The notes under the pieces are model-generated. The model was not told the DNA's origin. It saw only the letters and a list, made by a program, of their open reading frames with translations, and did not search any database. From positions 1 to 11,141 of IMG/VR virus record IMGVR_UViG_2563366948_000006: a stretch of DNA of 11,141 nucleotides; one strand, 5' to 3'. Position numbers and translations under genes: made by a program. The stretch comes from a virus. Lineage: Duplodnaviria > Heunggongvirae > Uroviricota > Caudoviricetes. Positions 1 through 11,141 of the stretch are shown in pieces; within the stretch, counting starts at the first letter, position 1, and each line of letters begins with the position of its first letter.

Positions 1-303
1 TTCTCCCAAACCAAGGTTTTCGAGAGCCGTTTTCACTGTGCCATCCGATTTGATATCGCCAAACGGATTCTTGCGGCTTAACAGCAGCGCACGAAGCGCG
101 GTAAGCAACTGGTCGTGCCGCGCCTTCTCCAGACTGGCACCGGATGTCTCCACCACGCTGCAAAGCTCTTCCTGCAACATGTCAAAGTAGTCATCATCCA
201 GATCGGTGGCAGGCGTGCCTGTCTGGGGGTTACCACGGGTAAAACCGTTTTTACCCGCGCCGAACTTATCCTTCTGCGCGGTTTTCGTGTCTATACGATG
301 CAT
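1..303 (-). CDS. Phage tail fibre protein, N-terminal fragment (gene runs off the window at position 1)
   Basis: Reverse-strand ORF with ATG at 303-301 and GGAG 7 nt upstream; translates [101 protein letters not shown]. The GNPxTGTPAT...QEEL stretch matches, from recall, the conserved N-terminal region of enterobacterial phage tail fibres. Absent from the ORF track because it is incomplete. Confidence 0.5.
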
Positions 304-306
304 GGA

Positions 307-1362
307 TTACTCCGGATATTTAAAAATTACGTAGGTATGCGACGGGCAGAGTTTGTTAAGCACGCACTCGACAACGGTGTCGCCCCAGATAAACAAGCGA
401 CGGTTAAGCTCCTGCTCCCAGTTCGTCACCCACGGCATCATCGTGTAGCGGACAAACTGAATCGCCTGCGCAGAAATATTGGAGAAGGTGGCTTTTTCGA
501 GGTCATTAATCATGTGCGCAGGAATATTGAAAATACCGGCAATCATTGAACGGTTCAGTTTCATCATGTCAATGATCTGAGCGTCAACTGGCGACACAGT
601 CAGTGCCTTGTAATCCAGATCGGCTGGCAGCAGCATGGTTTTGTTTTCCTGGCTGCGTAACGCCTGCGATGCCTTCTGCCACTGATCTTTAAGCCAGCCC
701 CAGCTGTCCTTATTGAGTCCGCTTTTAACGGATACTATCCCCGCCGGACGGGCATTACCGCTGAAGAAGCTTTCTGTGTATTTCTGACCGCTCATCCCCA
801 TGCCTATTGTTTCGGCATGTTGCATAATCGGACTCAGCCCCATCTTCTGATTATTACCCAGCGCACGGATGTGGATCATATCGTCGGGGCTGATCGCAAA
901 CGCCCCATATTCGTTGTACAAACCGTAGGTGTATCGACCACCAGTATTCATCAGCGTCGTTTCCCACGGCATACAGCAATCCAGGGATATGACTTCACCG
1001 CGACGATTACGTTTCACCCAGGTATACCCATTCCCCCAGCCAAGGATGTGACGTTGCTTCAGTTCGCGCCATTTGTAACTGGTTTGCCAGGTATTGGGCT
1101 CATCATGAACCAGATAAAACGCCGGATGATCGCGTGCGGGCTCAACCTTCCCATTGTGCCTGCGCATAACATGCAACGGCATCTGGGCAAGGCTGGAAGA
1201 CAGGACATAGATACAGGAATACACCGCAGCCAGTTTCATCGAAGTTTCAGGACTGACATAAACGTCTGCCCGGAACAGCCCATCAGTATCAACGGCATCC
1301 CCGGTTATCGGGGTGGAAGGATTCTCCAGTGATTTACTTCTGAACAGAGCATCAAGCAGCAC
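307..1362 (-). CDS. Phage portal protein, HK97 family; probably C-terminally truncated
   Basis: Translation contains portal-like blocks [62 protein letters not shown] and [16 protein letters not shown], and sits just downstream of TerL. Start placed at GTG 1362 (AAGGGGG-type SD upstream); the longest ORF starts at GTG 1392 and an in-frame ATG is at 1239. The protein ends about 25 aa after the [10 protein letters not shown] block, whereas HK97-family portals as I recall them continue well beyond it. Confidence 0.65.
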
Positions 1363-1513
1363 GCGTCCCCCTTCTGGCCATAGCCAGTGCACCCACCAGC
1401 AGTAAACCGCCGGACAGCATCAGAGCCGGAGCCATACCAAACTGCAGGTAAAACCCGCACGTAAGCAGGCCAAAACCAGCCAGCCCGATAACATCAGCAA
1501 TTAGTGATTTCAT
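1352..1513 (-). CDS. Small hydrophobic protein (53 aa, two predicted TM helices), function unknown
   Basis: Not in the ORF track. ATG at 1513-1511 overlaps the TerL stop (ATGA overlap); translates [53 protein letters not shown], stop at 1354-1352. Overlaps the portal start by about 11 nt. Confidence 0.4.
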
Positions 1514-3243
1514 AGAATTAAGAGAGCATCGTCCGGATCAAGAGATGAGAGGAAATCGTCGGGTTCTTTGAGCATTGCCCGACCGATCGCCATAATCAGT
1601 GCAACCGCACCATCGATTTTGTTTTCCGCCTGCTCCTTGACAGGCTTCACCACATCATCGTTACCCGGAATGGTTTTGCCGACCACGTTGCCGATACACC
1701 AGGTCATGATGGGATTGCCATCATGATGAAAGCGCCCCGATTCAATTGCCGCTTCCAGCTCTTTCATCGGGTCGGACATGTTGGTGTAGTTCTGAATGAT
1801 GGTGACGGGGTTCAGGTCTTCATCAGCAAGGTCATGTGACAGCCCGGTCGCCCCGAAGGGGTCGATGGGTGACTCGCTGACCGGGCTGATTTTGTTCGCC
1901 GCTTTGGCCTCCTCGAGGATGTAGCGATAATCCACCTCCGCACCATCGGTAACGGTCAGAACCCCCATCTCCACCCATTTCTGAAAGCGTTCGGCTGTCC
2001 GGCGATCTTCATTTTTCTCGACGCTGTACACCGTGTCATACGGTACCCAGAAGCGCGGAGCCACACTGTAGTAATGCGTTTTACCGTCAATCTCGCGGGT
2101 ATAAAGTCGCGCCATACTGTTCATATCCAGCTTACGCGCCAGGTCAAAGGCCAGGATGCACGGTTGCCCCTCGAACTGCTCAAGGGACAGTGATTTATCC
2201 TCGCAGCTCTGCCAGCTCACCAGGTTGAAATACGCCGAACGTGCCGACACCCAGATATTGAGGTGTTTTGTTTTAAAGACGTTTGCCAGACGGGCGTTAT
2301 TTTTCGCACGCTGCTGCTGACTTAACAAAAATTCGCGATAAACCGACACGCCAATATTTGGATTGGCTTTTTCCAGCACCTGCGGGTCGATCCAGTCGTC
2401 ACCTTCATCAACGGTATAGATGATCCCGAACAGTTCATCGTTAGGCACCGAGCCGTTGAGCATCTCGATGACTTCCCGCCGCTTGTCGTAGCACGGCCCC
2501 TCAATGTTGTACCCGGCGGTGGTGATGGCCCACATCAGTGGCTGACGTCGCGCCCCCATCCCGGTAAGCATTGTGGTATAAAGCGCATCGGTGGCATGCT
2601 CGTGATATTCATCAACCACGGCACAGTGGGGTGATGAACCATCACCGGGGTTGCCGATCAGCGGTTCAAACCGCGCGCCATCCTCCGGACGGTTCATGTT
2701 TGAGGCGTTAACCTCAATCCCGAACGCTTCCGTCAGCATGGGTGTGCGTTTACACATCAGTCGCGCCGGACGAAAAACTTCCCACGCCTGTTTCTCTGTC
2801 GTGGCACCGGAATACACTTCCGCGCCAAACTCGTTATCACAGGCAAAACAATACAGGGCAACACCGGCAGAGATTGCCGATTTGCCGTTCTTACGGGGGA
2901 TTTCGGTATACACCTCCCGGAAGCGGCGCAGCCGGGAGCCTTTATTGACCCAGCCAAACGCACAGCAGATCACAAAGAGCTGCCACGGCTCCAGCGTGAT
3001 GGGCATCCGTTTGAATGCCCACTCCCCCTTGGTGTGTGGCAACAGCTGAATAAATTTCGCGGCCCGTTCAGCCAGGTCCTTGTCGAAGCGGTAACGAAAC
3101 GACTTACTTTTTTCCGCCATCAGGTCATCAAGATGGCGCTGGCAGGCCTGAATCACAAACTGGCAGGCCACAATCTTTCCGCGCACGACATCACGGGCAT
3201 ACTGATTAGCAGCATTTACGTTGGGGTAAGATTTCCGGCTCAT
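1510..3243 (-). CDS. terL: Phage terminase large subunit (TerL, Terminase_1-type ATPase plus nuclease)
   Basis: 577-aa ORF, ATG at 3243 overlapping the TerS stop (ATGA). N-terminus [30 protein letters not shown] and overall length and content are typical of HK97-like large terminases; followed by the portal. Confidence 0.88.
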
Positions 3244-3734
3244 GACTCGATGATTTTCAGAAACGGGTTAGTGGCTTTCTTCTGCCCCGCCAGGCCAATC
3301 AGACGCTGGCGGCTGCTGGGGTCGAGTCCGAGCATTGCACCCGTGCTGCTCATCTCGGACTCCTGTTCTTTTTTGGCGGTCAGCTCCGGATTTTTGACCA
3401 TGCCGCCCATTGCACCGGTGATGGTGTTGCCCTGTCTGGCAATATTTTTCACGGCACGTCGCCAGAACTCATAGGCCACGCACCACCGCTCAAGTACCGC
3501 CAGGTCAGTCACGCACAGCAGGCCCTGACCGCAGAGTTCTTTGGTTGTCAGTTGCCACATGATCGTGGCGAGAGGGAGCTCTTCTTCTGTGAACCACTCC
3601 GGTGGCTCAACACCTTTGATGGGCGTAAAAACAGGTTCATCTTTATTCAGGGCTCGCTTGCCGGGGTTTCCGGCCAGCGCCTTGCGCGCCGTTGGCTTGG
3701 GGCGACGCCCGGAACGCCCCGCCGTTCCAGCCAT
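3240..3734 (-). CDS. terS: Phage terminase small subunit, P27 family
   Basis: Translation from ATG 3734 (AGGAG 8 nt upstream) begins [34 protein letters not shown], the characteristic P27-family TerS N-terminus (GRPxKPT...L.GNPGKR.LN). The track ORF begins 3 codons earlier at a GTG (3743). Confidence 0.8.
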
Positions 3735-3743
3735 ATGCGGCAC

Positions 3744-3860
3744 TCCTGGTTAAATTTCATTTTTCGCGGGTATAAAAAAACGATGGGGCGGGCAGTCCGG
3801 AAGGCGCGCGGTCGCAGAGATTTGACCTCCCCCTCCCCAGTCTGATGATGACATTAATTA
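3744..3860. other. HNH-TerS intergenic region; candidate cos (cohesive end) site
   Basis: 117-bp non-coding gap between HNH and TerS containing a GC-rich block (plus strand GGGGCGGGCAGTCCGGAAGGCGCGCGGTCGCAG, then GACCTCCCCCTCCCCAG). In HK97-type phages cos lies between the HNH gene and terS. Exact cut sites cannot be read from sequence. Confidence 0.3.
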
Positions 3861-4211
3861 TCACTTGAGCCGCTCACGCGCGGTCTTCGCTGCGTGACAC
3901 GACCAGCACAGGCTTTCAAGGTTGCTGTCTTCATCAGTACCGCCGTGGGCCTTCGCCTTGATGTGGTCCACGCAGGACGCCTGCTTCACTATCGCCTGCC
4001 GTAGATGGTTCTGACACAGCCCTTTGTCGCGCTTAAGTATCCGCTCCCGGATGACTTCCCACTTTGTTCCGTATCCTCGCTGCTGCCGTGATTGACCAGG
4101 CTTGTAGGACTTCCAGCCTTCACCTTTGTGATTTTCACAGTAGCCAGATGGGTCTGTTGTGGTGTTGCGACAGCCGCGAACACGGCAAGCCTTTGGTGTG
4201 CGCGGTGGCAT
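3861..4211 (-). CDS. HNH endonuclease (packaging-associated)
   Basis: ATG at 4211 with GGGGAG upstream; 116 aa; cysteine-rich N-terminus (CRVRGCRN...CENH) and HNH core CQNH...VDHIKAKAHGGTDEDSNLESLCWSCHAAKT; located immediately upstream of TerS. The track ORF starts 13 codons earlier at a GTG. Confidence 0.82.
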   Translation of the reverse strand: MPPRTPKACRVRGCRNTTTDPSGYCENHKGEGWKSYKPGQSRQQRGYGTKWEVIRERILKRDKGLCQNHLRQAIVKQASCVDHIKAKAHGGTDEDSNLESLCWSCHAAKTARERLK

Positions 4212-4274
4212 ATTCACTCCCCAAAAAACGTATAGCATTATCGCAGACACTTAATGAATGCCTGCTGAATGCCA

Positions 4275-4472
4275 CTAATCGTCGAGTTGCAATACACCGT
4301 GCTCAAGTGACTCTGAGTAAGCGATCAGCCCTGTGTATTCAGGGATAATCTCGCCATCATCCGCTTCGAATTCCGGGATTGTACCAGTGGTGATGGTGTA
4401 TTGGGGCTGACCATCTTCTTTCGCGAATGCTGCTAGGTCTTCAATCTGCTTAGCTGTAAGAACTACTGTCAT
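4275..4472 (-). CDS. Small highly acidic protein (65 aa), function unknown
   Basis: ATG at 4472 with GAGGT 7 nt upstream (the track start at 4478 is an ATG two codons earlier). Translation MTVVLTAKQIEDLAAFAKEDGQPQYTITTGTIPEFEADDGEIIPEYTGLIAYSESLEHGVLQLDD has about 14 D/E versus 2 K and no R. Confidence 0.55.
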   Translation of the reverse strand: MTVVLTAKQIEDLAAFAKEDGQPQYTITTGTIPEFEADDGEIIPEYTGLIAYSESLEHGVLQLDD

Positions 4473-4490
4473 GCTCATACCTCAGTTGTT

Positions 4491-4513
4491 AAAAAGCCCC
4501 GCTATTGCGAGGC
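4491..4513 (-). terminator. Rho-independent terminator downstream of the moron membrane-protein gene
   Basis: Minus-strand RNA would read GCCUCGC-AAUA-GCGGGGC followed by UUUUU (7-bp stem with one G-U pair, 4-nt loop, U-tract), 24 nt after the stop of ORF 4537..4812. Confidence 0.55.
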
Positions 4514-4536
4514 TATGATTGACTAAAGTGATGCTG

Positions 4537-4812
4537 TCAGGTGTGGGTCCAAATGAATTTAACAATCCCAATAATGCTAGCCAGAACGCCAAAACCAAAA
4601 ATAAATTGACCACATACCCCTATGATTCCCGATGCAATGGCACCGGCATTTGTCTGAGCATTTTCGTTTATGCTCGCCCCCACTAGATACATAATCAAAC
4701 CAACTATGAGAGATGCGATAATCCAATGTTCCACTGCTAATACAATTACAATGCTCAAAATATCTGCTAAACCATCACTATGACCACTCACTGCATATCC
4801 TTGCTTTGACAT
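4537..4812 (-). CDS. Small integral membrane protein (91 aa, glycine-rich TM segments) carried on an AT-rich moron
   Basis: Translation MSKQGYAVSGHSDGLADILSIVIVLAVEHWIIASLIVGLIMYLVGASINENAQTNAGAIASGIIGVCGQFIFGFGVLASIIGIVKFIWTHT is hydrophobic with GxxxG-like spacing. The surrounding roughly 4480-4880 is visibly more AT-rich than the flanking phage genes; in-frame stops lie just upstream of the ATG; a TATAAT sits about 20 nt upstream and a terminator downstream. Confidence 0.6.
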   Translation of the reverse strand: MSKQGYAVSGHSDGLADILSIVIVLAVEHWIIASLIVGLIMYLVGASINENAQTNAGAIASGIIGVCGQFIFGFGVLASIIGIVKFIWTHT

Positions 4813-4878
4813 TTGAAAAATTCATCACTGGATTATAATTGTTTACACCCTTCATAGTCGTTCGAATATGATAAAAAA

Positions 4879-5415
4879 TCAATTGTGGGGGATAGCGTTA
4901 TTTGACTCTCTCAACGAGTCGTAAATACGTTCACACGTCATCCCGGCGGTGTAGCGTTCGTCAGCGATTCCAGCATAACGTTTAGCTTCTGCTGCAATAT
5001 CTCCGAGCATGTCGGCGAACATTCCGGCGTCGGCGTCGGTTGTTTTGCTTCGGACGGCAGCGGCAAGATCAGCGGTGTGCTTTGCGGCGTCCAGGCGTGC
5101 GGCAAGCTTTGTTGCTTCGGTACGCAACTGGCTAACAGTGGCAGACAGGCCAGCAGCAGTGGCAGCAGATTTAGCGGCTTGTGCTTGTGCATCTTTTACA
5201 GCCTCATCACGGGCAATTATGCGCCCTTGTTCAATCCAGCGTGCGGCAGTCTGCGCGTTCGCTTCCTGTGAAGATTCCATGCTATTGTGGTCAGCCCACT
5301 TCTTTTGCCAGCCCCGCTCACTCCAGATGTTCCCGGCAAGAAATGCACCAGCCAACATCAGCAAAACAATGATTGTTTTCCACCGCGCCTGAACAAAAGC
5401 AAAGACCGCTGTCAT
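4879..5415 (-). CDS. Rz: Rz-like i-spanin (inner-membrane spanin subunit)
   Basis: ATG at 5415 overlaps the endolysin stop (ATGA). N-terminal TM helix ([19 protein letters not shown]) followed by an Ala/Gln/Lys-rich coiled-coil-like periplasmic domain; position right after the endolysin; contains an embedded lipoprotein ORF. Confidence 0.72.
4938..5192 (-). CDS. Rz1: Rz1-like o-spanin (outer-membrane lipoprotein), embedded in Rz in another frame
   Basis: ATG at 5192; [23 protein letters not shown] carries a signal peptide with lipobox (LLAS-C), followed by a proline-rich mature region; wholly inside the Rz coding region, the classical embedded arrangement. Confidence 0.65.
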
Positions 5416-6029
5416 ACCAGCAACGCCGCCCGCGCTTTGTTATAACGACTATTTCTGTCAGCCAGTCCATTCTGGCCACCGTTGATGATCTGCGTTACAC
5501 GGACAACATCACCTGAATACATCAGACAACCACGTAATGTGAAATACCATGCAGCAGAACGGGCTGCATGTTTCTCCTGTGTCAGCAACTCTGGTGTGCT
5601 GATCAGATCCAACTTCAGCGCCGCACCGCATTTGGCGTAGTTCTCGCGGCCGGTGATTTGAAGCAGGCCACGACCGCGATATTTCCAGCCGTCACCCTGG
5701 CTGTTATTCCCCATGCGGTCACCATAAACCAGATTGGCTATTTGCGGCTGGTGGGCTACCTGCTTACCATCGACACGCCCCAGCATTTCACACTGATAAG
5801 GCGTCAGGCGTTTACTAAAGGTTTTCTTCAGCCCGTCTACCGAGTAGTTGAAGCTTTCCACCAGCGAGGTAAAACCAGCAGATTCATGCCCAACTTGTGC
5901 AATGAACATGGCCTGATCGTTAACTGCTGTGATTCCAAACTCTTTCATTGCAGCATCAATGTGCGGAAACCAGCGCGCAGCCAGCCCGGCGCTAATACCA
6001 GCCGCCTTTTGAAATAATTGTTGGTTCAT
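5412..6029 (-). CDS. Endolysin, glycoside hydrolase family 19 (chitinase-like lysozyme)
   Basis: 205 aa with GH19-type blocks [35 protein letters not shown] and AAWYFTL; start ATG overlaps the upstream holin stop (TAATG); followed by Rz/Rz1. Confidence 0.85.
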
Positions 6030-6310
6030 TAGTGCCTCAGATGATCAACCAGACGTGCAACGTTGCCTCTGACGGCCACCAGCACGGAAAGAAAAATAGT
6101 GTTCGCCACGATAATGGGCCATGAGGAATGGGGATAAATCCCACAGAGATAGGCCAACGGAACAGCACTGTATGTAACAGTAATCAGCCAGGCTAAACGT
6201 GAAACCCAAGGACGATGCCGCGAATAACCACGACGATAAAACATCAGAGTAATAACAACACAAGCACATAACAGCGCATTTATAGTTGCTGTCGGGTCAT
6301 TTAGCTCCAC
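6029..6310 (-). CDS. Putative holin (93 aa, three predicted TM helices)
   Basis: GTG start at 6310 with GGAGG 5 nt upstream; hydrophobic segments INALLCACVVITLMFY, LAWLITVTYSAVPLAYLCGIY and WPIIVANTIFLSVLVAV; charged C-terminus; immediately upstream of, and coupled to, the endolysin gene. Confidence 0.55.
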   Translation of the reverse strand: MELNDPTATINALLCACVVITLMFYRRGYSRHRPWVSRLAWLITVTYSAVPLAYLCGIYPHSSWPIIVANTIFLSVLVAVRGNVARLVDHLRH

Positions 6311-6626
6311 CTGAACCTCCCCGGCGCGTTATGAGCGCCACCAGCGAGCCGATATCCTGATTATTCAGGAACGTCAGGATTTTAACGGCTAAAGCAGAGA
6401 CGATTACGGCACCAATAGCATCCAGAGGTTTATCACTGTATCCGGTCAAGTGCGCCAGCTTGGAGCCAACCAACCCAGAGCAAAGGATCCCGGCAATATA
6501 TGACACGATAAAATATGCCAGTCGGCGCGATGCACTCAGATCTGCTGCTGTTGCTATGTAGAATACCGTCCTTTTTACAAAACAGAGAAGAGCATCACCG
6601 GACGACGGGCTCATAACCCAATCCAT
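6297..6626 (-). CDS. Holin-like membrane protein (start uncertain: GTG 6641, ATG 6626 or ATG 6614)
   Basis: At least two TM segments (LAYFIVSYIAGILCSGLVG, LDAIGAVIVSALAVKILTFL) and a charged C-terminal tail QDIGSLVALITRRGGSGGAK that resembles, from recall, the C-terminus of lambda S; two closely spaced in-frame Met codons (MDWVMSPSS) could allow a dual-start arrangement. No strong SD at any candidate start. Confidence 0.5.
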   Translation of the reverse strand: MDWVMSPSSGDALLCFVKRTVFYIATAADLSASRRLAYFIVSYIAGILCSGLVGSKLAHLTGYSDKPLDAIGAVIVSALAVKILTFLNNQDIGSLVALITRRGGSGGAK

Positions 6627-6665
6627 CCGGGCGGCTGCCACCGCAGGTGTTCTTCTCTGTTTTGT
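6577..6665. repeat. 18-bp inverted repeat (17/18 match) separated by 53 bp at the lysis / early-operon junction
   Basis: Plus strand 6577-6594 ACAAAACAGAGAAGAGCA; the reverse complement of 6648-6665 is ACAAAACAGAGAAGAACA (15 bp perfect core). Left arm lies in the 5' end of the holin-like ORF, right arm in the divergent intergenic region upstream of yfdP. Confidence 0.7.
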
Positions 6666-6713
6666 GGAGAAACTAATCGGCCTTGCAGGGTCGATATGAT
6701 GAGGAGCAGCAAA

Positions 6714-7076
6714 ATGGCTAGCGAACGCAGTACTGATGTGCAGGCATTTATCGGGGAGCTGGACGGCGGCGTATTTGAAACCAAAATCGGCGCAGTTCTC
6801 AGTGAAGTCGCTTCCGGTGTGATGAACACGAAAACCAAAGGTAAGGTCTCACTCAACCTGGAAATCGAACCATTTGATGAGAACCGTGTGAAAATCAAAC
6901 ACAAACTCTCATATGTTCGCCCGACTAACCGCGGGAAAATTTCCGAAGAAGACACCACCGAAACGCCGATGTATGTCAATCGCGGTGGTCGCCTGACTAT
7001 TCTGCAGGAAGACCAGGGACAGTTACTGACTCTTGCCGGTGAACCTGACGGAAAACTCCGCGCAGCAGGTCGTTAA
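6714..7076 (+). CDS. yfdP: YfdP-like conserved prophage early protein (120 aa), function unknown
   Basis: ATG at 6714 with GAGGAG upstream gives 120 aa (MASERSTDVQAFIGELDGG...); first gene of a same-strand operon whose sizes (120, 274, 178, 120 aa) and order match E. coli K-12 KplE1 yfdP-yfdQ-yfdR-yfdS as I recall them. Confidence 0.55.
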   Translation: MASERSTDVQAFIGELDGGVFETKIGAVLSEVASGVMNTKTKGKVSLNLEIEPFDENRVKIKHKLSYVRPTNRGKISEEDTTETPMYVNRGGRLTILQEDQGQLLTLAGEPDGKLRAAGR

Positions 7077-7141
7077 TATCGTTTTTAATTAACTGATTAT
7101 TTATCTCATCACTGAATATCTTTATATAGTGAGGACTTATT

Positions 7142-7966
7142 ATGTCTCAGAACTTAGACGCAACCGCAATTAATCAAATCCATGCCCTTATTTCTGCTCA
7201 GGGTGTTAATGAAATTATCAGTAAGATTGGTGCCGATGCTGTGGCATTGCCTGAGAATTTCCGCATTCATGATCTGGAAAAATTTAATTTAAATCGCTTC
7301 CGTTTCCGTGGTGCGCTTTCCACTGCCAGCATCGATGACTTTACCCGTTATTCTAAAGATCTTGCAGATGAAGGCACCCGCTGCTTTATCGATGCTGATA
7401 ATATGCGTGCCGTCAGTGTGCTTAACCTGGGTACTATTGATGAACCAGGTCACGCAGATAACACCGCCACACTCAAACTGAAAAAGACAGCACCGTTCTC
7501 TGCTCTGTTGTCTGTTAACGGCGAGCGTAACTCCCAGAAGTCACTGGCAGAATGGATTGAAGACTGGGCCGACTATCTTGTGGGCTTTGATGCTAATGGT
7601 GACGCTATTCAGGCAACAAAAGCGGCTGCGGCTGTCCGTAAAATCACGATTGAAGCAAACCAGACCGCTGATTTTGAAGATAATGACTTCAGCGGCAAAC
7701 GCTCCCTGATGGAGTCTGTCGAAGCGAAGACCAAAGACATTATGCCAGTGGCATTTGAATTTAAATGCGTTCCGTTTGAAGGTCTGAAAGAACGTCCGTT
7801 TAAATTACGCCTCAGTATTATCACTGGCGATCGTCCTGTACTGGTTCTGCGCATTATTCAGCTGGAGGCGGTGCAGGAAGAAATGGCTAACGAATTTCGT
7901 GATCTGCTTGTTGAGAAATTCAAGGACAGCAAAGTAGAAACCTTTATTGGTACTTTCACCGCCTGA
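7142..7966 (+). CDS. yfdQ: YfdQ-like protein (DUF2303-type, 274 aa), function unknown
   Basis: ATG at 7142 with GAGGA 7 nt upstream; 274 aa beginning [20 protein letters not shown]; size and position match K-12 YfdQ from recall. Confidence 0.6.
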
Positions 7967-7978
7967 TTTCATTACTGC

Positions 7979-8000
7979 AAATGCCCCTGCGGGGGCATTT
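7979..8000 (+). terminator. Perfect 9-bp stem-loop between yfdQ and yfdR (possible partial terminator or attenuator)
   Basis: AAATGCCCC-TGCG-GGGGCATTT starts 13 nt after the yfdQ stop; GC core with an AU-rich 3' side (AUUUAU) but no long U-tract. Confidence 0.35.
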
Positions 8001-8093
8001 ATGGAAACGTAATTTACTCAATAATCGCCGGATGGTGAGGGATTCTTTTTACCAGAATTCAGCGCGGTGCAGCGCATATACGTGGAGAACAAA

Positions 8094-8630
8094 ATGTCAT
8101 TTATTAAAACTTTTTCCGGGAAGCATTTTTATTATGACAGGATAAATAAAGACGACATCGATATTAACGATATCGCGGTTTCCCTTTCAAATATCTGTCG
8201 CTTTGCCGGTCATCTTTCGCACTTCTACAGCGTCGCCCAACATGCGGTTCTTTGCAGCCAGCTGGTGCCGCAGGAATTTGCTTTTGAAGCGTTAATGCAT
8301 GATGCAACAGAAGCGTATTGCCAAGACATCCCCGCACCACTGAAACGACTTCTTCCTGACTATAAACGGATGGAAGAAAAAATAGACGCCGTAATCCGTG
8401 AGAAATACGGGTTACCTCCTGTTATGAGCACGCCAGTGAAATATGCCGATCTCATCATGCTGGCAACCGAACGCCGCGATCTCGGGCTTGATGATGGCTC
8501 TTTCTGGCCTGTGCTGGAAGGTATCCCGGCAACAGAGATGTTCAACGTGATTCCACTGGCTCCAGGCCATGCCTACGGGATGTTTATGGAACGCTTTAAC
8601 GAATTATCGGAGTTACGCAAATGCGCATGA
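8094..8630 (+). CDS. yfdR: HD-domain phosphohydrolase, YfdR-like (178 aa)
   Basis: ATG at 8094 with GGAGAA upstream gives 178 aa; HD-domain metal-binding signature visible (GHLSHFYSVAQH ... LMHDATEAY). The track ORF starts 9 codons earlier at 8067. Confidence 0.7.
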   Translation: MSFIKTFSGKHFYYDRINKDDIDINDIAVSLSNICRFAGHLSHFYSVAQHAVLCSQLVPQEFAFEALMHDATEAYCQDIPAPLKRLLPDYKRMEEKIDAVIREKYGLPPVMSTPVKYADLIMLATERRDLGLDDGSFWPVLEGIPATEMFNVIPLAPGHAYGMFMERFNELSELRKCA

Positions 8631-8983
8631 ATGTTTTCGAAATGGAAGGGTTTCTTCGCGGGAAATGTGTACCGCGAGATCTGAAAGTGAACGAAACAAA
8701 TGCTGAGTACCTGGTACGTAAATTCGACGCGCTTGAAGCTAAATGTGCGGCACTGGAAAGCAAAATAATACCAGTGTCAGCTGAACTGCCACCAGCAAAT
8801 GAAAGTGTTCTGTTATTTGATGCTAACGGAGAAGGCTGGCTGATTGGCTGGCGTTCTCTCTGGTACACCTGGGGACAAAAAGAAACCGGAGAATGGCAGT
8901 GGACATTTCAGGTCGGGGACCTTGAAAACGTCAATATCACTCACTGGGCAGTAATGCCGAAAGCACCAGAGACTAAGAAATGA
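8621..8983 (+). CDS. yfdS: YfdS-like protein (120 aa, Trp-rich C-terminal domain), function unknown
   Basis: Start overlaps the yfdR stop; 120 aa; C-terminus WLIGWRSLWYTWGQKETGEWQWTFQ...THWAVMP; stop overlaps the next ATG (ATGA). Confidence 0.55.
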   Translation: MRMNVFEMEGFLRGKCVPRDLKVNETNAEYLVRKFDALEAKCAALESKIIPVSAELPPANESVLLFDANGEGWLIGWRSLWYTWGQKETGEWQWTFQVGDLENVNITHWAVMPKAPETKK

Positions 8984-9195
8984 GCGTGATAAAAACTCAT
9001 ACAGGAATTGTTATCACCCGAGACGGTGAAAAGCGGATGAAATTACATTCCACTGAAACGTCCTGGGTTGCCGGACGTTGTGAATCCTACGACAAAAAGA
9101 CTGGTTACCGTTGGGGGGCACCTAACATGCGTCGCCGTCTGCTACTGGACAGCATCAGGCCAATAAAACAGGTAGCAACCAGGGAACAAAATTAA
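8980..9195 (+). CDS. Small basic protein (71 aa), function unknown
   Basis: ATG at 8980 translationally coupled to the yfdS stop; MSVIKTHTGIVITRDGEKRMKLHSTETSWVAGRCESYDKKTGYRWGAPNMRRRLLLDSIRPIKQVATREQN; lies between the yfd-like genes and xis. Confidence 0.5.
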   Translation: MSVIKTHTGIVITRDGEKRMKLHSTETSWVAGRCESYDKKTGYRWGAPNMRRRLLLDSIRPIKQVATREQN

Positions 9196-9254
9196 TTATC
9201 AGGACTGGAATTTGATATTACTGCCCGTGTGCAGCGGGCTAAGTGGAGAAACAT

Positions 9255-9461
9255 ATGCTGAACCTCGATTGTGTTCCAATCTCAACTTATTGCAAAGAAA
9301 CTGGCGAAACTCCTGAAGCAATAAACAAACGTGTACAGCGCGGTGTTTGGCGTGAAGGTGTTCAGGTTTTAAAGGTTGAAGGCGTTAAGGAGAGGTGGAT
9401 TGATCTTAGTGAGGTTGCAAAATGGGCCAGACAAAACTGCTCAAACTACCGCGCGGCGTAA
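9255..9461 (+). CDS. xis: Putative excisionase (Xis-like DNA-binding protein)
   Basis: ATG at 9255 with GGAG 6 nt upstream; 68 aa (MLNLDCVPISTYCKETGETPEAINKRVQRGVWREGVQ...); immediately upstream of the integrase and overlapping it by 40 nt, the canonical xis-int arrangement. The track ORF starts 4 codons earlier at a GTG. Confidence 0.55.
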   Translation: MLNLDCVPISTYCKETGETPEAINKRVQRGVWREGVQVLKVEGVKERWIDLSEVAKWARQNCSNYRAA

Positions 9462-10597
9462 CAATCAGGAAACACCGCCAGGGCGAAACGATCAATATAA
9501 CTTTCACCTACAAAGGAGTTAAATGTCGTGAGCCTCTTTCCAATCTGGAAGTAATACCAAAGAACATAAAATACGCCGAGCGCACACTCGGCGAAATTCA
9601 TAATAAGATCGAAAGGGGAACATTCATTTATGCGGAATATTTTCCCCGTTCTGCTCGTTTGAAAATTTTTGGTAATGCTGCTGCAGGCAAAACGGTAAAA
9701 ATGTACCTGGACGAATACCTTGAAATCTGCGAAACGAGAAAACTTTCACCCTCTACGATTGGTGGTTATAAAAAATGCCGTAGTGCGTTAGCCTCACTCC
9801 ACATTTGCCCTGCAAGTGAATTAACACCAGCAATCCTGAAAGCGTGGATTCAAAGCCAGAAAACGACCTCAAAAACAATTCGCAACCAGTTATCTTTCCT
9901 GCGGTCAGCACTTGATGAAGCCGTAACCGATGGGGTACTTCAAATTAACCCCGTATCGTTGGTAACTGCTTCGCGCTACCAAAGTGATAAGTCAGAAGCA
10001 GAAAGCAGCTACGTGGTTGATCCGCTATCACCAGCAGAAGTTGATGCATTACTAGCAGCAGCCGGAAACAAACAATGGGAAAATCTGTTCCGGTTCGCTA
10101 TACATACAGGCCTGCGTAGTTCTGAATTATGTGCCCTTCGATGGCGTGATATCGACTTTGTTGGAAAAACTGCCCATGTCCAGAGCGCAAGTGTTGTCGG
10201 TGTTATCAAAGGAACAAAGACAAAAGCCGGTACTCGTAAAGTTGAACTGACAGAAGAGGCAATGTTGGCGCTGATAAATCAGAAGCCATTTACATTCATG
10301 AAGGATGCTACTGTCTTTGAAGATCCAAAGACAAACAAACCGTGGGCCAGCGCCGATGCGATAAGGAAAAAAGCGTGGATACCAACCTTACGTAAAGCAG
10401 GTATCCGGTACCGTAACCCATATCAGACCAGGCATACATTCGCCACCAGCCATATCAGCCGTGGTGCGAACCTGTTCTGGCTTGCAGGCCAGATGGGCCA
10501 TAAGGGACCAGAAATGCTATTTCGTCACTATGGCAGTTACCTTGCTGCATATGACGGACATACCGCTAAAAATACTAATGATACAAAACAGGCTTGA
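9422..10597 (+). CDS. int: Tyrosine-type site-specific integrase with N-terminal arm-binding domain
   Basis: 391 aa; N-terminal LPRGVTIRKHRQGETINITFTYKGVKCREPL arm-binding-like region; C-terminal catalytic domain with the tyrosine-recombinase R...HxxR...Y pattern (LRSSELCALRWRDID, NPYQTRHTFATSHISRGANLFWLAGQMGH, RHYGSY); last gene before a GC shift. Confidence 0.9.
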   Translation: MGQTKLLKLPRGVTIRKHRQGETINITFTYKGVKCREPLSNLEVIPKNIKYAERTLGEIHNKIERGTFIYAEYFPRSARLKIFGNAAAGKTVKMYLDEYLEICETRKLSPSTIGGYKKCRSALASLHICPASELTPAILKAWIQSQKTTSKTIRNQLSFLRSALDEAVTDGVLQINPVSLVTASRYQSDKSEAESSYVVDPLSPAEVDALLAAAGNKQWENLFRFAIHTGLRSSELCALRWRDIDFVGKTAHVQSASVVGVIKGTKTKAGTRKVELTEEAMLALINQKPFTFMKDATVFEDPKTNKPWASADAIRKKAWIPTLRKAGIRYRNPYQTRHTFATSHISRGANLFWLAGQMGHKGPEMLFRHYGSYLAAYDGHTAKNTNDTKQA

Positions 10598-10641
10598 TGC
10601 TGCCCGAACAAATAGCCACTGAAACCTGATAAAAAGTTATT

Positions 10642-10676
10642 TGTGATGTGGTTATGTTCGTCATATCCACATCATA
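10642..10676. repeat. Imperfect 15-bp-arm palindrome (13/15) downstream of int
   Basis: TGTGATGTGGTTATG - ttcgt - CATATCCACATCATA, with a perfect GATGTGG / CCACATC core. Confidence 0.6.
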
Positions 10677-10763
10677 CATACTTAAACATAAGGCACTTTT
10701 TACCTTGCAAAAATTCGAACCAAGCATATATGTTATAGGTGAACTTGGTACTCAGGCAGCTGT

Positions 10764-10775
10764 CCTAGTACTAGG
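10764..10775. repeat. Perfect 12-bp palindrome CCTAGTACTAGG
   Basis: Self-complementary 12-mer in the int-distal non-coding region; possible operator or recombinase site. Confidence 0.5.
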
Positions 10776-10790
10776 AACACGCGGGAAATC

Positions 10791-10820
10791 TTGGAGCCAG
10801 TACGTAGATTATGGTAAAAT
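10791..10820 (+). promoter_or_regulatory. Putative sigma70 promoter (extended -10) for the downstream 82-aa gene
   Basis: TTGGAG (-35), 18-bp spacer, TGgTAAAAT extended -10; flanked by a 7-bp GC-rich dyad (CGCGGGA 10780-10786 / TCCCGCG 10820-10826) and followed by a CCCCG-N5-CGGGG hairpin in the predicted leader, then AAGGAGG and ATG. Confidence 0.4.
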
Positions 10821-10892
10821 CCCGCGCCCCGTTCTGCGGGGAGCAATAAATGCCTCAAAAGGATACATTGGGGGGACTGAAAGGAGGTCTTT

Positions 10893-11141
10893 ATGTCAGA
10901 ACTAGTCATGAAGATGTTTGGGCTGAATGATTTGGTCAAAGGCGGACAAGCCATGGCCGATCGTTTGAACAAATCTGGTGTTAAAAACATCAAGGTCGTA
11001 GGGCGTGGTGCAGTTATTGTAGACCCATCTACTGACCCAGAAAAAATCACTCAGCTTAGGAAAGCAGCTAGAAAATTCGTCGAGCAGGATGCAAAAGCTG
11101 TTGCAGCCGCTAAAGCTAACTCAATGGACAATGACGACTAA
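10893..11141 (+). CDS. Small hydrophilic protein (82 aa), function unknown
   Basis: ATG at 10893 preceded by a perfect AAGGAGG SD at optimal spacing; MSELVMKMFGLNDLVKGGQAMADRLNKSGVKNIKVVGRGAVIVDPSTDPEKITQLRKAARKFVEQDAKAVAAAKANSMDNDD; stop is the last codon of the window; region visibly lower in GC than the prophage genes. Confidence 0.6.
   Translation: MSELVMKMFGLNDLVKGGQAMADRLNKSGVKNIKVVGRGAVIVDPSTDPEKITQLRKAARKFVEQDAKAVAAAKANSMDNDD

Follow-up and report, generated by a model that had tools for sequence, protein, structure and literature searches.

The yfdP–yfdQ–yfdR–yfdS–orf71 cluster of a degraded prophage is a mosaic containing an obligate yfdP–yfdQ pair

Does a compact run of five phage genes act as one unit, and what would it do? 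The question is raised by yfdP, yfdQ, yfdR, yfdS, and orf71, which lie on the plus strand of an 11,141-nucleotide (nt) stretch of DNA from a Caudoviricetes virus (IMG/VR virus record IMGVR_UViG_2563366948_000006, positions 1 to 11,141; hereafter, the window). A preliminary description of this DNA had regarded them as a translationally coupled operon, expressed stoichiometrically and retained in a degraded prophage, and thus as a candidate module for host takeover, anti-defence, or superinfection defence. The five open reading frames (ORFs) were confirmed where it had placed them, and its domain calls hold, with DUF2303 matched strongly, the HD/YfbR-like domain weakly, and DUF551 just at the cut-off. 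The cluster itself is a mosaic consisting of an obligate YfdP–YfdQ pair, an independently mobile HD phosphatase that usually stands beside the pair in Enterobacterales, and swappable small ORFs. It is already known, being near-identical to genes of Escherichia coli K-12 that have a paper of their own, and because it is textbook K-12 prophage content, the finding as first written adds nothing new; new here, and modestly interesting, are the obligate pairing of YfdP with YfdQ, the location of both within recombination modules, and a conserved RNA hairpin.

Mosaic organization and relatives of the cluster

We compared 194 loci, including 80 E. coli-type viral contigs, 80 genome loci taken at the species level, and 31 from distant phages (Vibrio, Xanthomonas, Halomonas, Acinetobacter, and others; 25–45% identity). 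The genome scan was carried out with an enterobacterial YfdQ alignment, a diverse YfdQ alignment being too divergent, and the first scan of viral contigs returned only loci 99–100% identical, which inform on mosaicism and not on diversity. In 188 of 191 loci, the gene directly upstream of yfdQ encodes YfdP (80/80 E. coli-type contigs, 77/80 species-level loci, and 31/31 distant loci). YfdR follows YfdQ in 76/80, 57/80, and 0/31 of the same three groups, respectively, and follows the pair only in Enterobacterales. Downstream of yfdR, the genes yfdS, orf71, yfdT, and one for 3′-phosphoadenosine 5′-phosphosulfate reductase alternate among loci, and yfdS is present in only part of them. YfdR-type HD genes are also found on their own in 333 phage records, those of large virulent phages included. 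Based on the adjacency counts and the swapped downstream genes, the cluster resolves into the three units named above; conservation of gene neighbourhood, proposed earlier as a check on the five-gene operon, is therefore obligate for YfdP–YfdQ and only partial for yfdR, yfdS, and orf71.

The junctions between the genes give a similarly divided picture. A Shine-Dalgarno-like purine run precedes each of the five ORFs. The yfdR/yfdS junction is a 10-nt overlap, or an ATGA if yfdS starts at its second ATG (position 8627), and yfdS and orf71 also overlap by ATGA, so that the translational coupling asserted for the whole run stands at these two of the four junctions. It does not extend to yfdP–yfdQ and yfdQ–yfdR, which are separated by gaps of 65 and 127 nt, the latter holding the conserved hairpin; the run as a whole is not a translationally coupled operon, in which adjacent genes would overlap or stand only a few nucleotides apart throughout.

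The proteins of the window are 98.3% (YfdP), 99.3% (YfdQ), 98.3% (YfdR), and 98.3% (YfdS) identical to those of the K-12 prophage CPS-53 (KpLE1), and with this level of identity the published K-12 results carry over to the window proteins. In CPS-53, whose cluster is yfdP–yfdQ–yfdR–yfdS–yfdT (PMC4776307), the first four genes have the same order, spacing, and yfdR/yfdS overlap as in the window, but the fifth gene differs; orf71 has no K-12 counterpart, because the unrelated yfdT occupies that position. The excisionase of the window is not TorI, and the upstream joint is formed by a yfdO remnant in CPS-53 and by minus-strand lysis genes in the window. The SrsR boxes of the K-12 yfdO/yfdP spacer are not enriched in the window and are absent upstream of its yfdP. 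The exact sequences of the six proteins from YfdP to the orf71 product and the excisionase are public, each on 1000 contigs or more, and bear the names YfdP, YfdQ family/DUF2303, 5′-deoxynucleotidase, DUF551/hypothetical, hypothetical (always so for orf71), and excisionase. At the DNA level, positions 6600–9300 are matched in 3033 of 5426 complete E. coli genomes (56%).

An intact relative, the lambdoid prophage of strain TA8571 (locus L001), is 99.8% identical to the window over positions 6564–11141, and its gene order is a cI-like S24 repressor, a terminator, a promoter, a 600-nt leader, and yfdP through xis-int. The promoter is pL-like and near-consensus (TTGACA-16-CATAAT; L001 19486–19513), and lies upstream of the part retained in the window. 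No exo, bet, gam, or erf gene was found in this prophage. The same trio of yfdP, yfdQ, and the HD-phosphatase gene stands between repressor and xis-int in LLS, ST64B, and phiNP, lambdoid phages described as having no recombination (Rec) module (PMC12315714); a recognisable Rec module is lacking in 22% of enterobacterial lambdoid phages according to the same paper. LLS, ST64B, and phiNP are complete phages with pL and immunity regions, whereas the window has lost both by rearrangement. The placement of the cluster in an int-proximal early operon is accordingly true of the intact relatives, with the promoter missing in the window.

On balance, we take the cluster to be the distal part of the early-left (pL) operon of a Rec-less lambdoid prophage, composed of three mosaic units, namely, yfdP with yfdQ, yfdR, and yfdS with orf71. 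In early lytic growth, transcription from pL would first yield abundant YfdP and YfdQ, which may assist, as an oligomer, in the recombination, replication, or end handling of phage DNA, and read-through beyond the hairpin would then yield YfdR, YfdS, and the orf71 product. YfdR would dephosphorylate deoxynucleoside monophosphates (dNMPs) and bind domain I of DnaA at Phe46 and, aided by YfdQ and YfdS, would lower initiation at host oriC in favour of phage replication. In a live phage it likely damps initiation of the host chromosome, perhaps also freeing DnaB or draining dNMPs. The DUF551 gene yfdS and orf71 would be small, exchangeable accessories coupled to yfdR in translation. Within this scheme, gene structure, sequence identities, mosaic distribution, hairpin, and Rec-module context were observed here, and the enzymology and binding to DnaA are taken from published work; that YfdPQ acts in DNA metabolism, and what the block of DnaA serves for in the phage, are our inferences.

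Table 1. Positions of the cluster, its hairpin, the adjoining genes, and the rearrangement joint in the window
Feature	Position	Strand	Description
Rearrangement joint	6564–6571		Left, minus-strand late region of another prophage type; right, early-left region of a TA8571-type lambdoid prophage
yfdP	6714–7076	+	120 amino acids (aa); PF27127/phrog_204; upstream partner of yfdQ
yfdQ	7142–7966	+	274 aa; DUF2303 (PF10065)/phrog_210; isoelectric point 5.0
RNA hairpin	7979–8000	+	13 nt past the yfdQ stop; covariation across 40 species
yfdR	8094–8630	+	178 aa; HD-domain 5′-deoxynucleotidase (by sequence); phrog_318
yfdS	8621–8983	+	120 aa; N-terminal phage-shared segment and C-terminal DUF551; overlaps the yfdR stop
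orf71	8980–9195	+	71 aa; isoelectric point 10.4; phrog_1226; ATGA overlap with yfdS
Excisionase gene (xis)	9255–9461	+	phrog_2917 excisionase (8e-44); named excisionase in public records; 3′ end overlaps the integrase start
Tyrosine integrase gene (int)	9422–10597	+	Last operon gene; Arm-DNA-bind_2, Phage_int_SAM_5, and Phage_integrase domains

The YfdP–YfdQ pair and the hairpin behind it

YfdQ matches DUF2303 over residues 7–272 (E-value, 2e-92; 309.7 bits, against a gathering cut-off of 26.6), and belongs to a family of ~1800 clusters at 50% identity with a uniform length of 265–285 aa and no fusions. YfdP matches phrog_204 at 1e-49 and was assigned to PF27127 through its homologues, which carry this domain, the PF27127 model itself not being part of the Pfam copy used. 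A relationship of YfdP to YfdQ was ruled out by hhalign, although one phage record labels both as DUF2303. The model of YfdP is predicted to consist of a long helix and a three-stranded sheet. The C-terminal β-β-β-α segment of YfdQ was considered as a possible Rad52-like annealing core, which was not borne out; comparison of YfdQ with the single-strand annealing proteins (Rad52, RecT/Red-beta, and ERF) gave neither a Rad52-like fold nor a profile match. The Protein Data Bank (PDB) entry 9o7m, titled 'YfdQ Protein' and not included in the Foldseek PDB set used for our fold search, contains 36 chains that are ~95% identical to YfdQ of Xanthomonas phage Tabio. No PDB relatives were found for the YfdP-like and downstream proteins of Tabio, and 9o7m therefore seems to contain YfdQ alone.

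Among the distant phages, the pair keeps company with recombination genes. A Rec-module gene (annealing protein, exonuclease, or SSB type) lies within 6 kb of YfdPQ in 26 of the 31 distant loci; such a gene is nearby in 4 of the 80 species-level loci, and none is near the cluster in the window. Arrangements seen include ERF-YqaJ-(RNase T exonuclease)-YfdP-YfdQ-SSB in Vibrio podophages, YfdP-YfdQ-DUF1351-ERF-Exo-SSB in Xanthomonas phages, Rad52-DUF1351-RNase T-YfdP-YfdQ in a marine contig (L102), and Gam-RecT-Exo-SSB-YfdP-YfdQ in ArgO145. The published gene tables of Vibrio phage VvAW1 and Burkholderia phage JC1 place YfdPQ in the same recombination-gene neighbourhood. The pair is thus found within or beside modules of an annealing protein, an exonuclease, and SSB with accessories such as DUF1351 in Vibrio, Xanthomonas, Burkholderia, and Shiga toxin (Stx) phages; it differs from these modules in that YfdP and YfdQ have no similarity to their known components and that most enterobacterial prophages have no Rec gene near the pair.

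The DUF1351 gene recurs beside the pair in Xanthomonas and Vibrio phages, in varying position. It stands directly 3′ of yfdQ in three loci (L004, 5905–7320; L111, 5345–6478; and L113, 6805–7920) and 5′ of yfdP in L102 and L104. DUF1351 and YfdP–YfdQ may together be a conserved unit of larger size that adjoins ERF or Rad52 genes.

Earlier reports bear on the pair from several sides. In K-12, yfdPQ is recorded as an operon of its own, and SrsR binds the yfdO/yfdP spacer (PMC9181523). In a kin-recognition assay, a resident phage was reportedly affected when YfdQ was produced (bioRxiv 10.1101/413146). The DUF2303 protein of JC1 was detected in CsCl-purified virions, for which the authors suggested an association with DNA ends.

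Behind yfdQ lies a hairpin, AAAUGCCCC-UGCG-GGGGCAUUU, and of 72 distinct enterobacterial sequences, 68 have a perfect hairpin at the same place, with an energy of −8 kcal/mol or better. When 40 enterobacterial species are aligned, pairing holds in 99.4% of the cells of the nine pairs, and at five of the nine both partners have changed in a compensatory manner; covariation scores 0.406, compared with 0.144 in shuffles, of which 0 of 500 attain the observed value, and with ≤0.09 when the partners are slid. Because of its many U-G pairs, the hairpin holds only in the plus-strand RNA. Five of the nine pairs of the stem are G-C, the three U residues after the G-C core belong to the stem, and there is no U-tract; the terminator scan of the window did not call the hairpin. 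It is probably an attenuator, a weak terminator, or a 3′ stabiliser that separates yfdPQ from yfdR, and probably raises the expression of yfdPQ relative to the downstream genes. Most of the distant phages also show a stable hairpin after yfdQ, as counted without a null model. A search of Rfam at gathering thresholds gave nothing in the window; a sub-threshold hit to the small RNA STnc100 at 7958–8137 on the plus strand (19.8 bits, against a gathering threshold of 47) aligned poorly, extended into the yfdR coding sequence, and was judged to be due to chance.

YfdR, its small neighbours, and the rival explanations

YfdR matches phrog_318 ('deoxyribonucleoside 5' monophosphate phosphatase') at 2e-110, and aligns with the HD protein Atu1052 (PDB ID: 2gz4; E-value, 3e-14) with His50, His69–Asp70, Glu73, Asp78, and Asp119 at conserved positions, so that it shows the H...HD...D metal-ligand motif of the HD superfamily. 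Its scores lie below the curated thresholds of the neighbouring families (Pfam YfbR-like, 24.3 against 25.9; HD_3, 17 against 22.5; NCBIfam PRK03826, 19.9 against 122). As judged from sequence, YfdR is a distinct subfamily (phrog_318) of HD-domain 5′-deoxynucleotidases, in agreement with the earlier view of the HD protein as nucleotidase-like and with its public annotation. It shares the fold family and the H..HD..D/E ligand pattern with YfbR-type 5′-deoxynucleotidases (E. coli YfbR and Atu1052), and differs from YfbR in its sub-threshold family scores, its reportedly much lower nucleotide affinity, and its additional, reported DnaA-binding activity. A dNMP phosphatase activity (EC 3.1.3.89) is predicted for the window protein on the basis of its identity to K-12 YfdR, the RefSeq name, and the activity of YfdR attributed to Zimmerman 2008, as cited in PMC4776307.

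The link of YfdR to DnaA, which the preliminary description had mentioned with reserve, is real. yfdQRST was identified through its multicopy suppression of hda-185 (Noguchi and Katayama 2016, PMC4776307), and K-12 YfdR was found to bind DnaA domain I in a Phe46-dependent manner, at a site also used by DnaB and DiaA. Multicopy yfdQ and yfdR together with yfdS or yfdT block initiation at oriC, with yfdP being dispensable, and in pull-downs YfdQ, YfdS, and YfdT had no strong affinity for YfdR or DnaA (PMC4776307). The binding and the block support the suggested takeover of host replication. Window and K-12 YfdR differ at 3 of 178 residues, and the window protein is presumed to bind DnaA as its K-12 counterpart does. 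Lambda P and Bacillus subtilis SirA are likewise small proteins that bind the host initiator and block oriC firing, and SirA and YfdR have in common the use of the domain I Phe46/Phe49 patch. Neither is related to YfdR in sequence; lambda P binds domain III of DnaA and doubles as a helicase loader, whereas YfdR is an enzyme that needs YfdQ and YfdS or YfdT in vivo.

YfdS matches phrog_583 at 1e-81 and barely reaches the DUF551 family (PF04448; 22.1 bits against a cut-off of 22.0) over residues 50–117; its N-terminal 49 residues also match phrog_614 and phrog_14548, which comprise other phage proteins. The orf71 product has no match in Pfam, NCBIfam, or PADLOC and matches PHROGs of unknown function only (phrog_1226 at 6e-34), and its domain recurs at the C-terminal end of longer phage proteins. 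On deletion phenotypes, PMC4776307 cites Wang 2010 for H2O2 sensitivity upon loss of yfdQ and of yfdS; the cited paper (PMC3105296) names yfdK, yfdO, and yfdS, not yfdQ.

It is improbable that all five genes make up one co-adapted, stoichiometric module acting jointly on host replication or the nucleotide pool. They share a strand and two overlapping junctions, yfdPQRS is the commonest arrangement among E. coli-type loci, and the DnaA phenotype genetically needs yfdQ, yfdR, and yfdS or yfdT together. Yet yfdP is dispensable for that phenotype and yfdS replaceable by the unrelated yfdT, the pull-downs disclosed no strong affinity of the partners for YfdR or DnaA, many loci lack yfdS and orf71 or have other genes in their place, none of the distant yfdPQ loci has yfdR, and the conserved hairpin and 127-nt gap divide the cluster; the single stoichiometric unit first proposed is hence not supported. 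A role of the cluster, whole or in part, in anti-defence or superinfection exclusion, as through destruction of nucleotide signals or depletion of dNMPs by the HD enzyme against incoming phages, is in our view very unlikely. The early-operon site, where counter-defence genes are common, the retention in three independently degraded prophages and in over half of complete E. coli genomes, and the wide spread of YfdR-type HD genes in phages would fit such a role, but a search of PADLOC-DB (5027 defence-system models, E-value up to 0.01) assigned none of seven proteins to a family, the literature searched links none of these genes to defence, anti-defence, or superinfection exclusion, and what has been measured for YfdR is a low-affinity activity on dNMPs. 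Domestication, in which the host would retain the genes for stress tolerance without any phage function, is also an unlikely explanation. It could account for the H2O2 sensitivity of a K-12 yfdS deletion (PMC3105296), for the weak sensitivity of a yfdQ deletion to methyl methanesulfonate (reported, as cited in PMC4776307), for the K-12 yfdO/yfdP spacer being the strongest of all targets of the host regulator SrsR (PMC9181523), and for the survival of the cluster in degraded prophages; identical genes are, however, found in intact, inducible, and Stx-converting phages, SrsR boxes and promoter are both absent from the window, and deletion of yfdQRST leaves replication undisturbed (PMC4776307).

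The pair has a further rival explanation of its own, that YfdP–YfdQ is an unrecognised recombinase (a new annealing protein and its partner) replacing the Rec module in lambdoid phages without one. This would be in keeping with the repressor–xis slot, usual for exo/bet/gam, that the pair occupies in TA8571-type prophages with no Rec gene there, with the share of enterobacterial lambdoid phages lacking a recognisable Rec module, with the 36 chains of 9o7m, which recall the rings and filaments of annealing proteins, and with the adjoining exonuclease and SSB genes. We nonetheless hold it to be improbable; because the pair co-occurs with bona fide annealing proteins, YfdPQ is more likely an accessory than a recombinase. 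The authors of PMC12315714, who give no known function for yfdP and yfdQ, judged these unlikely to be hidden recombination genes, because ArgO145 has both alongside a full Rec module. A more specific and rather doubtful proposal is that YfdPQ could be an uncharacterised system of two proteins for DNA handling, high in copy number and oligomer-forming (as a mediator of recombination or a protector of DNA ends or single-stranded DNA), travelling with ERF, RecT, or Rad52 modules in phages of Gamma- and Betaproteobacteria and filling the Rec slot in the roughly one fifth of lambdoid phages that lack a Rec module. If true, the link of YfdPQ to the YfdR replication block would tie recombination-dependent replication of the phage to oriC shut-off.

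The preferred reading, that of a distal pL operon with a DNA-handling pair and a host-replication inhibitor, also has to be set against several observations that weigh against it. As for YfdR, the yfdQRST deletion has neither a replication nor a hydroxyurea phenotype, the authors of the DnaA study caution that the effect is possibly an artefact of over-expression, and the nucleotide affinities of YfdR were reported to be much below those of YfbR (PMC4776307). As for the pair, no biochemical function of YfdP or YfdQ is known, their isoelectric points (5.9 and 5.0, respectively) are acidic, which is unusual for DNA-binding proteins, and the AlphaFold models (pLDDT, 74 and 70) bear no convincing likeness to recombination, repair, or DNA-binding folds. 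A literature search found no publication describing 9o7m. The Rec-module context is guilt by association only, and the presence of the JC1 protein in virions could be true packaging instead of co-sedimentation of a large oligomer. YfdP–YfdQ has no assigned function, although over half of the complete E. coli genomes and also Stx-converting phages carry it and ~1800 sequence clusters exist world-wide; its obligate pairing, Rec-module embedding, terminal hairpin, and 36-chain homologue structure give a lead on the recombination-dependent growth of lambdoid phages without a recognisable Rec module.

Rearrangement of the window and its flanks

That the window derives from a degraded prophage is borne out by the abutment of minus-strand late genes on the cluster. 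The blastn match with the TA8571 prophage begins at 6564, and late-region matches in other genomes stop at 6566–6571; the same joint is present in none of the complete E. coli genomes of the collection. The late region (390–6566) encodes holin-like ORFs, a GH19 endolysin, DUF2514, HNH, a P27-type small terminase, the large terminase, and the portal. Homology to the TA8571-type prophage starts ~150 nt upstream of yfdP, and the pL promoter is therefore missing in the window, together with the immunity, replication, and Q regions; the promoter scan called no sigma-70-like promoter on the plus strand from 6000 to 11141. Since the rearrangement removed both repressor and pL promoter, the cluster of the window is orphaned from pL and probably weakly expressed or silent. 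The cluster has been kept, as first described, through degradation, which took place independently in CPS-53, the window, and APEC 102026; CPS-53 and APEC 102026 were each rearranged on their own just upstream of, or within, yfdP.

From the TA8571 region comprising the terminator, the promoter, and the ~600-nt leader (L001 19446–20115), the window keeps only the last ~150 nt, at 6564–6713. The leader contains no convincing ORF or N-like gene, and Rfam gave nothing significant for it; it might contain an RNA-based antitermination or regulatory element.

Further traces of rearrangement are seen on the left. A minus-strand ORF of 114 aa at 6297–6641 crosses the joint and is thus chimeric. Positions 1–241 are 94% identical to the yfdL/yfdM joint of CPS-53, and the portal ORF (307–1392, 361 aa) appears truncated, which together suggest a second deletion joint near 241–390. 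At the other end, an 82-aa ORF lies 3′ of int on the plus strand (10893–11141); it is hypothetical in the relative and has no Pfam or PADLOC match. In TA8571, a further hypothetical gene comes after this ORF, and then genes for a second integrase and for a serine recombinase, so that the prophage adjoins another island. In APEC 102026 (L194, 8391–10952), an IS5-family element lies between a lambda-type holin gene on the minus strand and a 5′-truncated yfdQ, and a second IS5 copy lies inside yfdT; the overall layout is as in the window, with a separate origin.

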